From NCBI RefSeq assembly GCF_054482595.1, contig NZ_CM137008.1: a stretch of 64,000 bases of DNA; one strand, 5' to 3'. Within the stretch, counting starts at the first letter, position 1, and each line of letters starts with the position of its first letter. Under the pieces are notes generated by a model, which worked only from the letters and a program-made list of their open reading frames with translations, searched no databases and was not told the origin of the DNA. This document shows, piece by piece, positions 53,306-57,718 of this stretch. Both the position numbers and the translations under genes were made by a program.

Positions 53306-55039
53306 ATGATAAAACCGACGTTTTTACGCCGGGTGGCCATTGCTGCTCTGTTCACAGGAAGTTGTTTTAGCGCCGCCGCTGCGCCTCCTGTTTCTTACGG
53401 CGTGGAGGAAGATGTCTTCCATCCGGTACGCGCGAAACAGGGGATGGTGGCATCTGTAGATGCTACTGCCACTCAGGTGGGGGTGGATATCCTCAAGGAG
53501 GGCGGGAATGCCGTTGATGCCGCCGTGGCTGTGGGCTACGCGCTGGCGGTAACGCATCCGCAGGCAGGGAATCTGGGCGGTGGTGGTTTTATGCTGATCC
53601 GCTCGAAAAATGGCAATACCACCGCTATCGATTTCCGCGAAATGGCACCCGCCAAAGCGACCCGCGATATGTTCCTTGATGATCAGGGTAACCCGGACAG
53701 CAAAAAATCACTCACTTCGCATCTGGCTTCCGGCACGCCCGGTACGGTCGCTGGTTTCTCGCTGGCGTTGGATAAATACGGCACAATGCCGTTGAACAAA
53801 GTGGTGCAGCCAGCGTTTAAACTGGCACGCGATGGTTTTATCGTTAACGACGCGCTGGCAGACGATCTCAAAACCTACGGTAGCGAAGTGCTGCCGAATC
53901 ACGAAAACAGCAAGGCTATCTTCTGGAAAGAGGGCGAGCCGCTGAAAAAGGGCGACAAGCTGGTGCAGGCGAACCTGGCAAAGAGCCTGGAGATGATTGC
54001 CGAAAACGGCCCGGACGAATTCTACAAAGGCACGATAGCGGAACAGATTGCCCAGGAGATGCAGAAAAACGGTGGCCTGATCACTAAAGAAGATTTAGCG
54101 GCGTATAAAGCGGTCGAACGCACACCGATAAGCGGCGATTATCGCGGGTATCAGGTTTACTCCATGCCACCGCCATCCTCCGGCGGGATCCATATCGTAC
54201 AAATCCTCAATATTCTGGAAAACTTCGATATGAAGAAATACGGTTTTGGCAGCGCCGACGCGATGCAGATCATGGCAGAAGCGGAGAAATATGCCTACGC
54301 TGACCGCTCGGAATATCTTGGCGACCCGGATTTTGTCAAAGTCCCGTGGCAGGCGCTGACCAATAAAGCCTATGCCAAATCTATTGCCGAGCAAATCGAT
54401 ATCAATAAAGCGAAACCGTCCAGCGAGATTCGCCCCGGCAAGCTTGCGCCTTATGAGAGTAATCAAACTACCCATTACTCAGTGGTGGATAAAGACGGTA
54501 ACGCCGTGGCGGTGACCTATACGCTGAACACCACCTTCGGTACGGGTATTGTCGCGGGCGAGAGCGGTATTTTGCTCAATAACCAAATGGATGATTTCTC
54601 TGCCAAACCGGGCGTACCGAACGTTTACGGGCTGGTGGGCGGTGATGCCAACGCCGTCGGGCCGAACAAACGCCCGCTGTCATCGATGTCACCAACCATT
54701 GTGGTGAAAGACGGTAAAACCTGGCTGGTCACCGGTAGCCCTGGCGGGAGCCGGATCATCACTACAGTGCTTCAAATGGTGGTGAATAGCATCGATTATG
54801 GCATGAACGTCGCCGAAGCGACCAATGCGCCGCGTTTCCACCATCAGTGGTTGCCGGACGAGCTGCGTGTCGAAAAAGGGTTTAGCCCGGATACGCTCAA
54901 GCTGCTGGAAGCAAAAGGTCAGAAAGTGGCGCTGAAAGAGGCGATGGGCAGTACACAAAGCATTATGGTTGGGCCGGACGGTGAGTTGTACGGCGCATCC
55001 GACCCGCGCTCGGTGGATGATTTAACGGCGGGGTACTAA
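53306..55039 (+). CDS. ggt: Gamma-glutamyltranspeptidase
   Basis: 577-aa protein starting MIKPTFLRR with signal peptide and the conserved Thr autoprocessing site (QTTHYSVVD); GGAGAA Shine-Dalgarno; the ORF track begins at a TTG 27 nt further upstream. Confidence 0.95.
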   Translation: MIKPTFLRRVAIAALFTGSCFSAAAAPPVSYGVEEDVFHPVRAKQGMVASVDATATQVGVDILKEGGNAVDAAVAVGYALAVTHPQAGNLGGGGFMLIRSKNGNTTAIDFREMAPAKATRDMFLDDQGNPDSKKSLTSHLASGTPGTVAGFSLALDKYGTMPLNKVVQPAFKLARDGFIVNDALADDLKTYGSEVLPNHENSKAIFWKEGEPLKKGDKLVQANLAKSLEMIAENGPDEFYKGTIAEQIAQEMQKNGGLITKEDLAAYKAVERTPISGDYRGYQVYSMPPPSSGGIHIVQILNILENFDMKKYGFGSADAMQIMAEAEKYAYADRSEYLGDPDFVKVPWQALTNKAYAKSIAEQIDINKAKPSSEIRPGKLAPYESNQTTHYSVVDKDGNAVAVTYTLNTTFGTGIVAGESGILLNNQMDDFSAKPGVPNVYGLVGGDANAVGPNKRPLSSMSPTIVVKDGKTWLVTGSPGGSRIITTVLQMVVNSIDYGMNVAEATNAPRFHHQWLPDELRVEKGFSPDTLKLLEAKGQKVALKEAMGSTQSIMVGPDGELYGASDPRSVDDLTAGY

Positions 55040-55046
55040 GGTTAGC

Positions 55047-55078
55047 GGCCCTCTTCGTGGGAAGAGGGCTGTTTTCTT
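55047..55078 (+). terminator. Rho-independent terminator of ggt
   Basis: Hairpin GGCCCTCTTC-gtgg-GAAGAGGGCT followed by GTTTTCTT. Confidence 0.8.
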
Positions 55079-55407
55079 GAACAAGATAAATTAGTGTCTG
55101 GATTGCTTTTACTATTGCTCCGTAATATATAATCATAATTATCCTGAATGCTTTTAAGGGGCTTAGGTTATGCTTTCTTTTCAAGAGTATGCAGAATAGT
55201 TTTTCATTTACCGTGAAAATAGGACGTGCGATAATTACTTCCTGATATTCAGGAAAGGAATTAACTATGCTATTAAATAAACTGTAGTTATAGTTCATTT
55301 TAGAGTGTAATTTATTGATTTAAATATCACGCTTTGTGTTGTTTATGTGCATAATGGCATTCATCATGACTTTGATCGATTTTGTAAAGTGTTTTTAAGG
55401 GGGCATA

Positions 55408-55824
55408 ATGAAAGCAAAATACGTGATTCTCTCTGTACTTAATAAACAAGAACTCTTCTATTTAAAATCAAGATACAAAGAAATGAAGAAACTTGCTAAT
55501 AAGCATGAAGTCTCTCTCGTAGAACAAAATTTCATTGATGCTATTATTTCAATGGTGGGTTATTGCTCTTTGGGGTTTGGGTTGGTAAGTATAGTTAATG
55601 GGATATTGCTTGTATTCTCATTTTTTCAGGATAACATGTTGAAAAGTTTTTTTCTGTCTTCAATCGTTAGTATTGCCATGTTCGCTATTCTTAGCATACA
55701 CAGAAAACTGGATACTAAATTCTCTTACCAATTATGCCTCAAAATGTTTTATCTTAAAATTAAGTTATTCTGTTATTGTATTCCTGCACCAGTTGTAGTT
55801 CCTGATATATTCATTAATAATTGA
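55408..55824 (+). CDS. Hypothetical small membrane protein (138 aa, two to three TM helices)
   Basis: AT-rich ORF with strong Shine-Dalgarno (AAGGGGG) before the ATG; hydrophobic segments MVGYCSLGFGLVSIVNGILLVFSFF and IVSIAMFAILSI; no family recognised. Confidence 0.55.
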   Translation: MKAKYVILSVLNKQELFYLKSRYKEMKKLANKHEVSLVEQNFIDAIISMVGYCSLGFGLVSIVNGILLVFSFFQDNMLKSFFLSSIVSIAMFAILSIHRKLDTKFSYQLCLKMFYLKIKLFCYCIPAPVVVPDIFINN

Positions 55825-55836
55825 TGTGGCATATGA

Positions 55837-56685
55837 TTATTGAGGCCATGTTTTATCCTCAAATTTGTATTTTTCATCATAAAATGTAACCTTGAATTTT
55901 TTTACAGTAGAACTAATTTGTATGATTTTTAAAGGGGTAGGTTTTAATGAGAATTTATTTTTAAAATCAACTGATGTGTAATGAAATAATCGTCCTGTAC
56001 CAGGTCTATTTCCTAATGAAGGACGAATCAATCTATTATACTTAGGTACGATTTTCATGCCTGAATATCCACCATATGCAGTAATCGAAAAGTCCACGAT
56101 GCTGTATGCATAATCAGCAGAATTAATATCACCTCCCATTTTTTTTGCTATTACTCTGTAGAGTTCACGTATTAGACCTGAATCATACTCGTTAAAAAAT
56201 AAAGGTGATAAGCTTTCATAAAAATTATTCGCCCCATGAGCAACTAATGTGACGCCTATACCTTTTATTCGGTTTGAATGCACTACCTTACCAAATTTCA
56301 ACGCGCCAACCCCGCCTACGACCTGTCCTACAGATGCAACAATATCGAAACTTAAGTTCACATATTTTATCAAACCATGTTCTTCGAAAATATCAGTAGT
56401 GATATATTTATCATAATTTCCTTGTCTGAAAAGTTGATATTCTTTTCTTGCTGTTTCTGACTCCATTTTTAATTCATTGATAAGTCGTGTTTTTTCATTG
56501 ATGTCATATGAAGAATTGAATCTGTGAGTAATATCATTAATAGTATTTTCTATTTCTTGCAGATACTCGAATCTAACTAATGGGGACTCAATAAAAAATG
56601 TTGAAGCAAGTGTTGCGGTTTTGCGTAAAGAAAGGGCATATTTGTTAAGATCATATCGTAAATGACTTATAGCTGCTGTACCCAT
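55837..56685 (-). CDS. Hypothetical protein (282 aa) with a glycine-zipper segment
   Basis: AT-rich ORF convergent with the 138-aa gene, 12 nt between stops; central motif VASVGQVVGGVGALKFG; no recognisable catalytic motif; weak Shine-Dalgarno. Confidence 0.5.
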   Translation of the reverse strand: MGTAAISHLRYDLNKYALSLRKTATLASTFFIESPLVRFEYLQEIENTINDITHRFNSSYDINEKTRLINELKMESETARKEYQLFRQGNYDKYITTDIFEEHGLIKYVNLSFDIVASVGQVVGGVGALKFGKVVHSNRIKGIGVTLVAHGANNFYESLSPLFFNEYDSGLIRELYRVIAKKMGGDINSADYAYSIVDFSITAYGGYSGMKIVPKYNRLIRPSLGNRPGTGRLFHYTSVDFKNKFSLKPTPLKIIQISSTVKKFKVTFYDEKYKFEDKTWPQ

Positions 56686-56895
56686 TAAGTAGACTCTCTA
56701 TCCATAAACAAACAGTAATAACTATTGCTTGCGAAAATATGTTCTCTTTAATAAGAAATATTAACGAGTAATGATTCAAAAGTCTCTTGATGTTACAAAT
56801 TATTTCAAAATGATGGTGGTAATATAAGGAAAAACTCAAATTAGATGAACAAAACTAATTATTCACATTGGTAACAGGCAATTTGAGAATATTCT

Positions 56896-57384
56896 TTACT
56901 TCACCCGCGCCATATAATACGCATCGACATATTCACCATTACGCAATGCGTACTTCTTACCAGTCCCTTCAATTTCAAAGCCGTATTTTTTATAGACCTT
57001 AATTGCTGGCGCGTTATCGACGAACACCGTTAGCTCGATACGATCTACCCGCAACCAGTTGTCGCACATTTCAATCATCTCTCGCATAAGGGCGCTGGCG
57101 ACGCCGCGATTCTTCCAACGGGCGTCGACACAGATACCAAAATCGGCAACATGACTGCGGCGTGGGCGCTGTTGCACGTCAATGGTGAGGTGACCCACGA
57201 CGGTTCCATCAATACAGGCAACTAACTGTTTGATGCCGGGACGATCGGCGAGTCGCTCCTGCCACATATGATCGGAAGGATGAGGCACCTGTAGTGTGTT
57301 GCAATACACCTCCGGCTGGGCGTGAATCTGCCTGATGGCCTCGTAATCGCGCGTTTCAGCATGGCGTATCACTATCTCACTCAT
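56896..57384 (-). CDS. yhhY: GNAT-family N-acetyltransferase YhhY
   Basis: 162-aa protein starting MSEIVIRHAE with AAGAGGA upstream; the ORF track begins 93 nt further upstream. Confidence 0.9.
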   Translation of the reverse strand: MSEIVIRHAETRDYEAIRQIHAQPEVYCNTLQVPHPSDHMWQERLADRPGIKQLVACIDGTVVGHLTIDVQQRPRRSHVADFGICVDARWKNRGVASALMREMIEMCDNWLRVDRIELTVFVDNAPAIKVYKKYGFEIEGTGKKYALRNGEYVDAYYMARVK

Positions 57385-57506: not shown

Positions 57507-57598
57507 GCGATCAGGAAGACCCTCGCGGAGAACCTGAAAGCACGACATTGCTCACATTGCTTCCAGTATTACTTAGCCAGCCGGGTGCTGGCTTTTTT
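57507..57598 (+). ncRNA. ryhB: Iron-starvation small RNA RyhB
   Basis: Sequence GCGATCAGGAAGACCCTCGCGGAGAACCTGAAAGCACGACATTGCTCACATTGCTTCCAGTATTACTTAGCCAGCCGGGTGCTGGCTTTTTTTTT matches the RyhB sequence as I recall it, including its terminator. Confidence 0.95.
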
Positions 57599-57718
57599 TT
57601 TGATCTTTCGTTCTCAATTTATCCTCGGGAAGTGCTTGTGTTCGTTATGCGCACTCCAGTAGGAACCACGTCCGCTTTGCGCTAAGGTGTAAATAACCAC
57701 CTTAAAAAGGACGAAATC

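Follow-up and report, generated by a model that had tools for sequence, protein, structure and literature searches.

Between ggt, which ends at position 55039 of the window (the whole stretch of DNA that was analysed, 64,000 nucleotides), and yhhY, which is encoded on the minus strand and ends at 56896, lies an interval that in K-12 holds yhhZ, an IS1-split yrhA, yrhD and yrhB; a preliminary description of this DNA had correctly named yhhZ, yrhA and yrhB. K-12 homology ends at 55075 on the ggt side and restarts at 56896, the stop codon of yhhY; the content of the interval differs between strains, and the exchange of cargo at a fixed address proposed in that description is real. The features of the interval are as follows.

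55040 to 55075, plus strand: hairpin 3′ of ggt, GCCCTCTTC-GTGG-GAAGAGGGC followed by a T-run, common to K-12
55076 to 56895, no strand: variable AT-rich cassette, 1820 bp with 31% GC, in place of K-12 yhhZ-yrhA-yrhD-yrhB
55397 to 55403, plus strand: Shine-Dalgarno-like AAGGGGG, 4 nt 5′ of the ATG of the 138-aa open reading frame (ORF), read from the sequence
55408 to 55824, plus strand: candidate immunity gene, 138 aa
55837 to 56685, minus strand: putative DUF4225 toxin gene, 282 aa, 32 kDa, with a match to Pfam PF13988
55866 to 55870, minus strand: homopolymer near the toxin 3′ end, T5 on the plus strand and A5 on the coding strand, from the alignment of the window with O157:H7 SS17
56686 to 56895, minus strand: AT-rich spacer of 210 bp from the yhhY stop to the toxin start, the position of hcp or vgrG in relatives

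The ggt hairpin is the left boundary mark and lies outside the cassette. The GC content of the cassette is 0.311 compared with 0.537 in the remainder of the window, and every 300-nt segment inside the interval has a value of 0.27–0.36, against 0.51–0.57 for the flanking genes, in agreement with the low GC noted earlier. Among 5426 complete E. coli genomes, 342 (6%) carry the cassette at no less than 99% identity, with one chromosomal copy each, and these carriers include E. coli O157:H7, O55:H7 and other lineages. The two genes converge as described before, with exactly 12 nt (55825–55836) between the stop codons of the 282-aa ORF on the minus strand and the 138-aa ORF on the plus strand. A minus-strand ORF at 54963–55298 was considered as a third gene and rejected because it extends past the edge of the cassette into the 3′ part of ggt. 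None of 2000 shuffles of the interval composition reached 282 codons, and the longest ORF had at least 138 codons in 0.55% of 2000 shuffles. Scans of the cassette for repeats, terminators, promoters and Rfam families returned nothing above chance, the sole Rfam match (RyhB) lying outside it, and there is no terminator-like site on the minus strand of the spacer.

The preliminary description found no recognizable family for either protein. This stands for the 138-aa protein, which has no named family, but not for the 282-aa protein, which matches Pfam DUF4225 over residues 71–247 and model positions 2–163 of 165 (E = 4.2e-36, 124.3 bits) and is already labeled DUF4225 in RefSeq. Its predicted layout is an N-terminal three-helix bundle (residues 2–87) followed by Gly-rich hydrophobic helices (residues 108–163), and its N-terminus, as read from the sequence, is not hydrophobic in the manner of a signal peptide. 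The glycine zipper noted earlier is borne out (G120-G124-A128-G132), and the polar residues Q121, H150, N153, N154, E157 and D198 occupy conserved alignment columns. The AF2 model has a mean pLDDT of 78; its structural neighbors in AFDB50 are all DUF4225 proteins, and the fold search gave no relative of known function and no PDB fold match. NCBIfam scans of both proteins yielded nothing useful. Word-indexed searches recovered near-identical E. coli sequences only, and an exhaustive search of 1.84 billion representatives was required to find relatives, of which there are 73 at E ≤ 0.001. Two further hits were discounted: P0003, a seemingly divergent allele (83% identity) from an error-laden assembly in which all neighboring genes are fragmented, and P0008, a contig-end fragment.

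The 138-aa protein has a basic N-terminal region of about 44 residues, two transmembrane (TM) helices and a basic C-terminal amphipathic helix; the two strong hydrophobic segments, at approximately residues 45–73 and 77–97, agree with its earlier description as a membrane protein. Against a profile of eight small two-TM proteins from the gene contexts of the relatives it scores 43.6 bits, and the small proteins of a more distant plasmid group give a full-length hhalign alignment. By these comparisons it is a member of a small two-TM family encoded convergent to DUF4225 genes. Pfam searches with the 138-aa protein and with an 11-member family alignment identified no family, an NCBIfam scan of nine members gave no match, and tblastn of the 138-aa protein against plasmids gave none. 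The window protein by itself shows a weak Pfam match to the SAVED-fused 2TM effector domain (Saf_2TM, E = 0.11), and one relative is labeled SLATT 2TM effector in UniRef; this identity was rejected, as none of the 11 family members matches any SLATT or Saf family at E ≤ 0.1.

The gene neighborhoods of twelve relatives of the 282-aa protein were read, i.e., ten chromosomal or metagenomic relatives (25–46% identity) and the Pantoea and Enterobacter plasmid relatives. In all 12, a small two-TM gene converges on the toxin 3′ end, at stop-to-stop distances ranging from a 26-nt overlap to 116 nt apart, and some contexts have tandem copies of this gene, a fused form of it, or repeats of the entire module that include it. 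Such duplication, fusion and repetition are frequent among immunity genes. An hcp or vgrG gene adjoins the toxin gene in nine of the ten chromosomal or metagenomic contexts (9/12 overall), among them those of Dickeya dadantii 3937, Buttiauxella gaviniae, Enterobacter cancerogenus and Xenorhabdus taiwanensis; the tenth, contig L012, offers only 100 nt of upstream sequence. Three relatives at 24–25% identity are on plasmids, two of them without hcp, and the Pantoea and Enterobacter plasmid relatives keep intact toxin and convergent-gene pairs with no adjacent hcp. Of the seven loci of relatives whose flanks are long enough for a comparison, six have a module that is an AT-rich island; the Enterobacter plasmid is the exception. 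Genes for Hcp, VgrG or PAAR are absent beside the cassette and throughout the 64-kb window; tblastn with YhhZ and five module-linked Hcps as queries gave nothing significant across the whole window and no hcp remnant in the spacer. A search of the cassette and window for a second immunity remnant was likewise negative.

In O157:H7, one base is lost in the homopolymer; the resulting 303-aa reading frame shares 51 nt with the 138-aa ORF, and only the last 11 residues of the toxin are altered. The C-terminus encoded in the window (...FYDEKYKFEDK) aligns with YDGKYKFNDE and WDEKYKFENKY of relatives; since the C-termini of relatives match the frame of the window, the 282-aa frame is, on the evidence of these alignments, ancestral and the O157:H7 303-aa allele derived. 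An 81-nt stretch around the homopolymer is matched at ≥99% by 30 of the 342 carriers, and 312 fall in the 95–99% band; these 312 depart from the ancestral sequence there, and the ones sampled belong to O157:H7 and have the frameshifted 303-aa product, giving about 91% of carriers, mostly O157:H7, with a changed toxin C-terminus, a proportion that fits relaxed selection on the toxin. PGAP calls the DUF4225 gene of window-type genomes a frameshifted pseudogene and leaves the 138-aa ORF uncalled in O157:H7, where it remains open. The RefSeq frameshift flag on the window-type allele arises because the derived O157:H7 allele serves as reference and, judged from the aligned reading frames, is an artifact. 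This corrects a systematic RefSeq error, whereby the pseudogene flag falls on the intact ancestral allele, the derived allele is taken as reference and the candidate immunity ORF is dropped there.

A T6SS (type VI secretion system) cluster is present elsewhere in two carrier genomes, and the 159-aa Hcp of this cluster is 45–57% identical to the module-linked Hcps. The cluster of O157:H7 SS17 is apparently complete; that of XH990, which matches the window at 100% identity over 12 kb, has an internal stop in tssH and a frameshift in VasL, and delivery there may therefore be impossible.

We consider it probable that the cassette represents a type VI secretion effector–immunity module lacking hcp. 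The preliminary description had offered toxin–immunity or anti-phage defense; the former is favored by the DUF4225 domain and the convergent small TM gene, and the latter is disfavored by the lack of any PADLOC match and by the hcp or vgrG linkage of relatives. It had also suggested an undescribed system, which the cassette does not reveal, as the kind was described in 2022 (PMC9765294). In that work, DUF4225^18764 from the Hcp1b auxiliary module of V. parahaemolyticus CFSAN018764 is a T6SS1-dependent antibacterial effector that lyses cells and is toxic only if sent to the periplasm, being harmless in the cytoplasm, and it is rescued by the adjacent small TM protein Imm4225^18764 (Jana et al. 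2022, PMC9765294). The domain also occurs fused to PAAR, VgrG, Hcp and Rhs (PMC9765294). Of the traits of these T6SS DUF4225 pairs (Jana et al. 2022), the cassette has the adjacent small TM gene, i.e., the 138-aa two-TM ORF 12 nt from the toxin stop, and lacks linkage to hcp, vgrG or PAAR. Gene neighborhood makes the 138-aa protein most likely the cognate immunity protein of the 282-aa toxin; that its family of small proteins is unlike the Vibrio immunity protein in length, number of TM helices and gene orientation counts against this role.

Is the cassette instead a decaying remnant of an hcp-DUF4225-immunity module, whose toxin is no longer delivered and whose orphan immunity gene protects against related DUF4225 effectors? 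The missing hcp, the divergence of 312/342 carriers from the ancestral sequence at the frameshift site (the sampled ones being O157:H7 with the 303-aa product), the 138-aa ORF still open in O157:H7 and the two disrupted genes in the XH990 T6SS all point this way. However, the window allele retains the complete DUF4225 domain (71–247) and an intact ancestral C-terminus, the O157:H7 frameshift touches no more than the last 11 residues, and the T6SS cluster of SS17 is apparently complete. Furthermore, the existence of intact hcp-less pairs on the Pantoea and Enterobacter plasmids implies that a missing adjacent hcp is not in itself decay, and we regard the remnant as unlikely. Outright loss of function, the ORFs being accidental or dead pseudogenes within AT-rich DNA gained by horizontal transfer, would be in keeping with the PGAP pseudogene mark in window-type genomes, the uncalled 138-aa ORF in O157:H7 and the absence of a significant promoter excess in the region, but the mark is artefactual, with relatives backing the frame of the window against a derived reference, both ORFs have full-length homologues in other genera, ORFs of such length are improbable in DNA of 31% GC, and a strong Shine-Dalgarno-like sequence precedes the 138-aa ORF. 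This explanation is highly improbable.

A two-gene module that works independently of a T6SS, in addiction, abortive infection or anti-phage defense, or in the manner of a bacteriocin, with the membrane protein as antidote or effector, is a somewhat less remote but still improbable reading. It would account for the absence of an adjacent secretion gene here and in the Pantoea and Enterobacter plasmid relatives, and it draws on the weak Saf_2TM match and the SLATT label. This lead failed across the family and in NCBIfam, however, PADLOC-DB contains no family for either protein at E ≤ 1, and hcp or vgrG is adjacent in 9 of the 12 relative contexts. In addition, the characterized homologue is non-toxic in the cytoplasm (PMC9765294), which is ill-suited to an addiction or abortive-infection toxin, and no bacteriocin lysis or export gene is present.

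For the preferred effector–immunity module, the following scheme can be proposed. By analogy with V. parahaemolyticus DUF4225^18764, the only characterized member, the toxin would be harmless in the cytoplasm of the producer; an Hcp-based T6SS would export it, and a neighboring Gram-negative cell would be killed from the periplasmic side by destruction of envelope integrity. The cassette would have lost, or never had, an adjacent hcp, and delivery, if any, would have to use the 159-aa Hcp encoded in the T6SS cluster at aspV. The 138-aa protein, as cognate immunity protein, would be an inner-membrane protein whose two termini are cytoplasmic and of which no more than a short loop, a few residues long, reaches the periplasmic face. 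Its gene probably has a promoter separate from that of the toxin and is transcribed independently, and the immunity genes of pore-forming colicins have the same layout. Because the immunity protein would leave next to nothing exposed on the periplasmic side and the toxin has a conserved helical hairpin with a glycine zipper, we favor insertion of the toxin into the inner membrane, where helix–helix contact with the immunity protein would block it. Enzymatic attack on the envelope would also fit, considering the conserved H/N/N/E/D residues of the toxin. The lysis observed in Vibrio is amidase-like and unlike that of the membrane-disrupting Tme1 (PMC9765294), and as late as 2025 the DUF4225 mechanism was listed only as "cell lysis".

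A more tentative reading, which we think less likely than not, is that an opposite-strand immunity gene that always adjoins or overlaps the toxin 3′ end is a conserved design in one enterobacterial DUF4225 branch, and that DUF4225 itself is membrane-inserting (pore-forming). Under such a design, immunity would be transcribed independently of the toxin, and read-through could produce antisense RNA or transcriptional interference that dampens toxin expression, and a pore-forming DUF4225 could be neutralized inside the inner membrane in parallel to colicins. If true, this would settle the mechanism of a widespread toxin domain.

The novelty of the cassette is modest: the kind of system is known, and what is new is the convergently encoded, unnamed family of putative immunity proteins and the annotation error. 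Our analysis assigns a likely function to an uncharacterized gene pair of E. coli O157:H7, O55:H7 and other lineages, defines an unnamed two-TM family that travels with DUF4225 toxins across Enterobacterales in convergent arrangement, and offers the E. coli pair as a second, genetically tractable model for the DUF4225 domain.

Compared with Vibrio DUF4225^18764, the window toxin has the same Pfam domain, is likewise a stand-alone protein of similar size, and has a small membrane protein encoded directly after it. The Vibrio module is Hcp-linked, as are the closest relatives of the window toxin, whereas no hcp is adjacent to the cassette. The Vibrio immunity protein is encoded on the same strand and has 89 residues and three TM helices; the window candidate, from a different family, is encoded on the opposite strand and has 138 residues and two TM helices. 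The Vibrio layout recurs on a V. mimicus plasmid, where hcp is followed by DUF4225 and a same-strand TM ORF; the sequence resemblance is remote, the DUF4225 homologue there being 31% identical to the window toxin over residues 143–241 only. The accessible parts of the PMC9765294 supplements contain no match to the E. coli and Dickeya accessions.

The modules of Dickeya dadantii 3937 (Dda3937_01417), B. gaviniae, E. cancerogenus and X. taiwanensis encode toxins that are 30–40% identical to the window toxin over the full length with the same endpoint, and they share the convergent two-TM gene family and the AT-rich island composition of the cassette; in these modules hcp or vgrG abuts the toxin start, and the cassette has neither. 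The literature searched holds no characterization of these modules.

Immunity to pore-forming colicins (A, E1, Ia and others) is conferred by a small polytopic protein of the inner membrane; its gene is on the strand opposite to the toxin and faces the toxin 3′ end, and the toxins contain a hydrophobic helical hairpin. The likeness to the window pair is one of layout only: DUF4225 is the only Pfam match of the 282-aa protein, with no colicin pore-forming domain and no corresponding PDB fold, and unlike these colicins the pair lacks a lysis gene as well as domains for receptor binding and translocation.

The yhhZ-yrhA cassette of K-12 has no sequence homology to the window cassette, but shares its insertion point, left boundary hairpin, right boundary at the yhhY stop and orientation downstream of yhhY. 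A literature search on yhhZ gave nothing relevant to the window cassette. YhhZ is also of T6SS type, being annotated in RefSeq as tssD / Hcp1-family effector, and comparison of its N-terminus with Hcps gave 36–39% identity for the enterobacterial set, 33% for that of V. mimicus and 30% for the 172-aa Hcp of O157. As this main alternative cargo is annotated as an Hcp-family T6SS effector, the ggt-yhhY site is a place of exchange for T6SS-type toxin cassettes. The cargoes differ in that the Hcp of YhhZ carries a fused putative endonuclease, whose target would be cytoplasmic, whereas the window toxin is an unfused DUF4225 protein that would target the envelope.

The 64-kb window is E. coli chromosome, and the preliminary description of the AT-rich cassette between ggt and yhhY was correct at the level of sequence: two convergent open reading frames (ORFs) are present, with 12 nt between their stop codons.

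ggt, ending at 55039: left flank of the interval
55408–55824, + strand: 138-aa ORF, candidate immunity gene
55837–56685, − strand: 282-aa ORF, DUF4225 protein
yhhY, ending at 56896, − strand: right flank of the interval

By comparison with K-12 the variable segment runs from 55076 to 56895; the first 36 bp past ggt, hairpin included, are common to the window and K-12, and on the right the segment stops at the yhhY stop codon. The pronounced AT-richness is borne out, with 31.1% GC in the cassette against 53.7% in the remaining window, and 0.27–0.36 per 300-nt window inside the interval against 0.51–0.57 in the flanking genes. The longest ORF reached at least 138 codons in 0.55% of 2000 composition shuffles, and 282 in none. 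A 111-aa ORF (54963–55298, − strand) that starts in the cassette and runs antisense across the boundary into the ggt 3′ end is absent from the RefSeq annotation, and is probably spurious. Between yhhY and yhhX the window has the RyhB sRNA (57536–57600, + strand; Rfam RF00057, 83 bits), an expected feature that K-12 has in the same place and that is unrelated to the cassette.

Residues 71–247 of the 282-aa protein match Pfam DUF4225 (PF13988; E=4.2e-36), which is already its RefSeq name. The claim that neither protein has a recognizable family therefore fails for the larger gene, and stands for the smaller one, whose two-TM family has no covering model in Pfam, NCBIfam or PADLOC. Jana et al. 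2022 (PMC9765294) showed that V. parahaemolyticus has, downstream of hcp1b, a gene for a DUF4225 protein that acts as an antibacterial effector dependent on T6SS1. The protein is toxic to E. coli only if directed to the periplasm, the result being lysis; immunity is conferred by a small three-TM-helix protein encoded directly downstream of the DUF4225 gene. DUF4225 is also found fused to PAAR, VgrG, Hcp, Rhs and contact-dependent-inhibition-type N-termini (PMC9765294), and a 2025 review gives its activity only as ‘cell lysis’. Judged from sequence, the cassette belongs to this DUF4225 T6SS effector–immunity kind, but lacks hcp. The initial toxin–immunity idea was hence right in kind, given the DUF4225 effector family and the convergent two-TM family, the label of an undescribed system was not, the kind being known (PMC9765294), and an anti-phage role finds no support, neither protein having a hit in PADLOC.

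Word-indexed homologue searches with the 282-aa protein returned nothing beyond near-identical E. coli sequences; exhaustive phmmer over 1.84 billion representatives yielded 73 relatives at E ≤ 0.001, seven of them full-length (273–298 aa, 30–46% identity). Named relatives come from Buttiauxella gaviniae, Enterobacter cancerogenus/asburiae, Dickeya spp. including D. dadantii 3937, and Xenorhabdus taiwanensis, and structure search added Phytobacter, Serratia, Photorhabdus and Pectobacterium. The neighbourhood set comprised nine representative relatives (25–46% identity), amounting to ten module copies, and three plasmid homologues (24–25% identity). Of the ten chromosomal or metagenomic contexts, nine have an hcp or vgrG gene adjoining the toxin gene, and in most of the nine it abuts the toxin start; in the tenth (L012) the contig holds merely 100 nt upstream of the toxin. 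The product of the linked hcp is 159 aa long, except in one context, where it has 157 aa. On Pantoea agglomerans and Enterobacter asburiae plasmids the toxin gene has no adjacent hcp; on the former, a recombinase-family (resolvase/invertase-like) gene (L005, 3336–3917) lies directly upstream of the hcp-less DUF4225 gene, a hint that the two-gene unit may be mobile.

A small opposite-strand ORF of about 105–136 aa converges on the toxin 3′ end in 12 of 12 contexts, the stops overlapping by up to 26 nt or lying up to 116 nt apart. Buttiauxella and the Enterobacter plasmid have tandem duplicates of the small gene, Enterobacter cancerogenus repeats it along with the entire module, and in Xenorhabdus taiwanensis (L018, 5966–6760, − strand) its counterpart is a 264-aa fusion of two tandem two-TM units (two HMM domains). 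Duplication, fusion and repetition are typical behaviour of immunity genes. In two relatives (L028, 161–1783; L029, 98–1737), hcp and the small two-TM gene both lie on the strand opposite the DUF4225 gene; the L029 copy is on a small mobilisable plasmid, and its small ORF of about 105 aa, with the motif LLESNFKRKDLKELK, was missed by the gene finder.

In pairwise BLAST the 138-aa protein matches the small proteins of the relatives only weakly; a profile HMM built on eight of these, with the window protein excluded, matches it across its length (43.6 bits; E=1.8e-15, one-sequence search). All members share a basic N-terminal region of about 40–55 residues with the loosely conserved motif IL.SGF..kEL..lK (VILSV-LNKQELFYLK in the window), two TM helices with a short loop between them, and a basic amphipathic C-terminal helix. 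Profile–profile comparison aligns the 109-aa plasmid group (Pantoea and Enterobacter) with the family over 94 columns (probability 80%, E=1.4e-5). A weak match to the SAVED-fused 2TM domain (E=0.11) and the UniRef label ‘SLATT’ on one relative both failed when all members were scanned. A Shine-Dalgarno-like AAGGGGG stands 4 nt ahead of the ATG of the 138-aa ORF. Based on the conserved neighbourhood and architecture, we conclude that this ORF is genuinely a gene and that it is the best immunity-gene candidate.

In genomes identical or near-identical to the window, the DUF4225 gene bears a PGAP frameshift flag; in O157:H7, PGAP annotates a 303-aa protein (WP_001302024.1) and leaves the 138-aa ORF uncalled. 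The RefSeq records concerned are NC_017656.1, NZ_CP019359.1 and NZ_CP008805.1. The alleles differ by one homopolymer base, T5 at 55866–55870 in the window versus T4 in O157:H7. Since the C-terminus in the window frame (...TFYDEKYKFEDKTWPQ) aligns with ELYDGKYKFNDE, LFWDEKYKFENKYN and ELILGGYKYQDE of the 273–298-aa relatives, and the O157:H7 tail (NTNLRIKHGLNNHMPHQLL...) has no match among the relatives' C-termini, the alignment identifies the 282-aa form as ancestral and complete, and the O157:H7 form as the frameshifted one. The flag is thus a reference artefact, because the reference WP_001302024.1 is itself the frameshifted allele. O55:H7, the accepted progenitor lineage of O157:H7, has the window's allele. 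Over an 81-nt stretch around the run, 30 of the 342 carriers match at ≥99% and 312 do not; in a spread sample the shorter O157:H7-type allele occurs in 35 of 40 carriers, most labelled O157:H7. The 138-aa ORF is still open in O157:H7, with one substitution, and the pair may still be in use in E. coli or be a mere remnant retained for immunity.

The cassette is present at ≥99% identity and in a single chromosomal copy in 342 of 5426 complete E. coli genomes, and was not found outside these; apparently divergent alleles were rejected as assembly artefacts or contig-end fragments. Occupants of ggt-yhhY were surveyed in E. coli with a 12-kb query spanning the locus, whose ranked matches were sampled at even spacing. 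Most sampled genomes have the K-12-type cassette, which in K-12 holds yhhZ, IS1-split yrhA, yrhD and yrhB, in agreement with the preliminary description; its yhhZ is annotated as a tssD/Hcp1-family effector. Three loci (L019, L020, L021) are IS1-mediated deletion derivatives that keep yrhB, with or without yrhD, and have lost yhhZ; in L021 the IS1 abuts the yhhY 3′ end and seems to alter it. Near-empty alleles exist as well, with 60 bp between ggt and yhhY in L030 (5050–5109), where the hairpin differs from the post-ggt hairpin of the window and K-12, and the left junction common to these two cassette types is absent. Cargo swapping at a fixed address is thereby confirmed, and the window and K-12 cargo are both T6SS-type toxin cassettes, which makes ggt-yhhY a site that swaps such cassettes.

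No Hcp-like sequence was found in the cassette or anywhere in the 64-kb window. In O157:H7 SS17 a T6SS cluster that appears complete is located at the aspV tRNA and includes two hcp genes, vgrG and Rhs; XH990, which shares 100% identity with the window across 12 kb, has the same cluster (L025, NZ_CP019359.1 3863000–3900000), with an internal stop in tssH and a frameshift in a VasL-domain gene that could be real decay or sequencing errors. The cluster's 159-aa Hcp shares 45–57% identity with the Hcps that accompany DUF4225 genes in the relatives, the second Hcp merely 26–36%, and delivery of the toxin by the 159-aa Hcp is plausible. This hcp is followed downstream by a small, disrupted ORF and by genes for a 198-aa hypothetical protein and a DUF1311 protein (L022, 8264–7137; L025, 24918–26266), which may be another Hcp-linked effector–immunity set. 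A complete lateral flagellar cluster (Flag-2, lafA; L024, NZ_CP019359.1 3814000–3850000) near the XH990 T6SS island is unrelated to the cassette.

The AlphaFold2 model of the 282-aa protein (55-sequence alignment, mean pLDDT 78) is all-helical, with a confident N-terminal three-helix bundle (residues 2–87), a low-confidence linker, long helices 108–135 and 138–163, and more helices thereafter. The glycine zipper noticed initially is confirmed as G120-G124-A128-G132 within helix 108–135. Reading of the sequence revealed no signal-peptide-like hydrophobic N-terminus, in keeping with export through a contractile system. By prediction, all that the putative immunity protein presents to the periplasm is a loop of few residues, and for this reason we favour a mechanism in which the toxin would insert into the inner membrane and be neutralized inside the bilayer. 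Conserved family-wide are Q121, G125, G144, H150, G151, N153, N154, E157, G184, Y194 and D198. The polar ones among them would fit an enzymatic toxin too, and the published lysis phenotype is closer to that of an amidase than to that of the membrane disruptor Tme1 (PMC9765294).

Modestly new are an unnamed two-TM family convergent with DUF4225 genes in all 12 contexts, the corrected frameshift direction, with the O157:H7 allele as the derived form, and the view of ggt-yhhY as a swap site for T6SS-type toxin cassettes. A Vibrio mimicus plasmid has the published layout of hcp, DUF4225 gene and TM ORF on the toxin strand, whereas the small gene is on the opposite strand in the 12 other contexts. 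The immunity gene of pore-forming colicin operons is likewise on the opposite strand; the likeness lies in this convergent layout, however, as the window toxin has neither sequence nor fold similarity to colicins.
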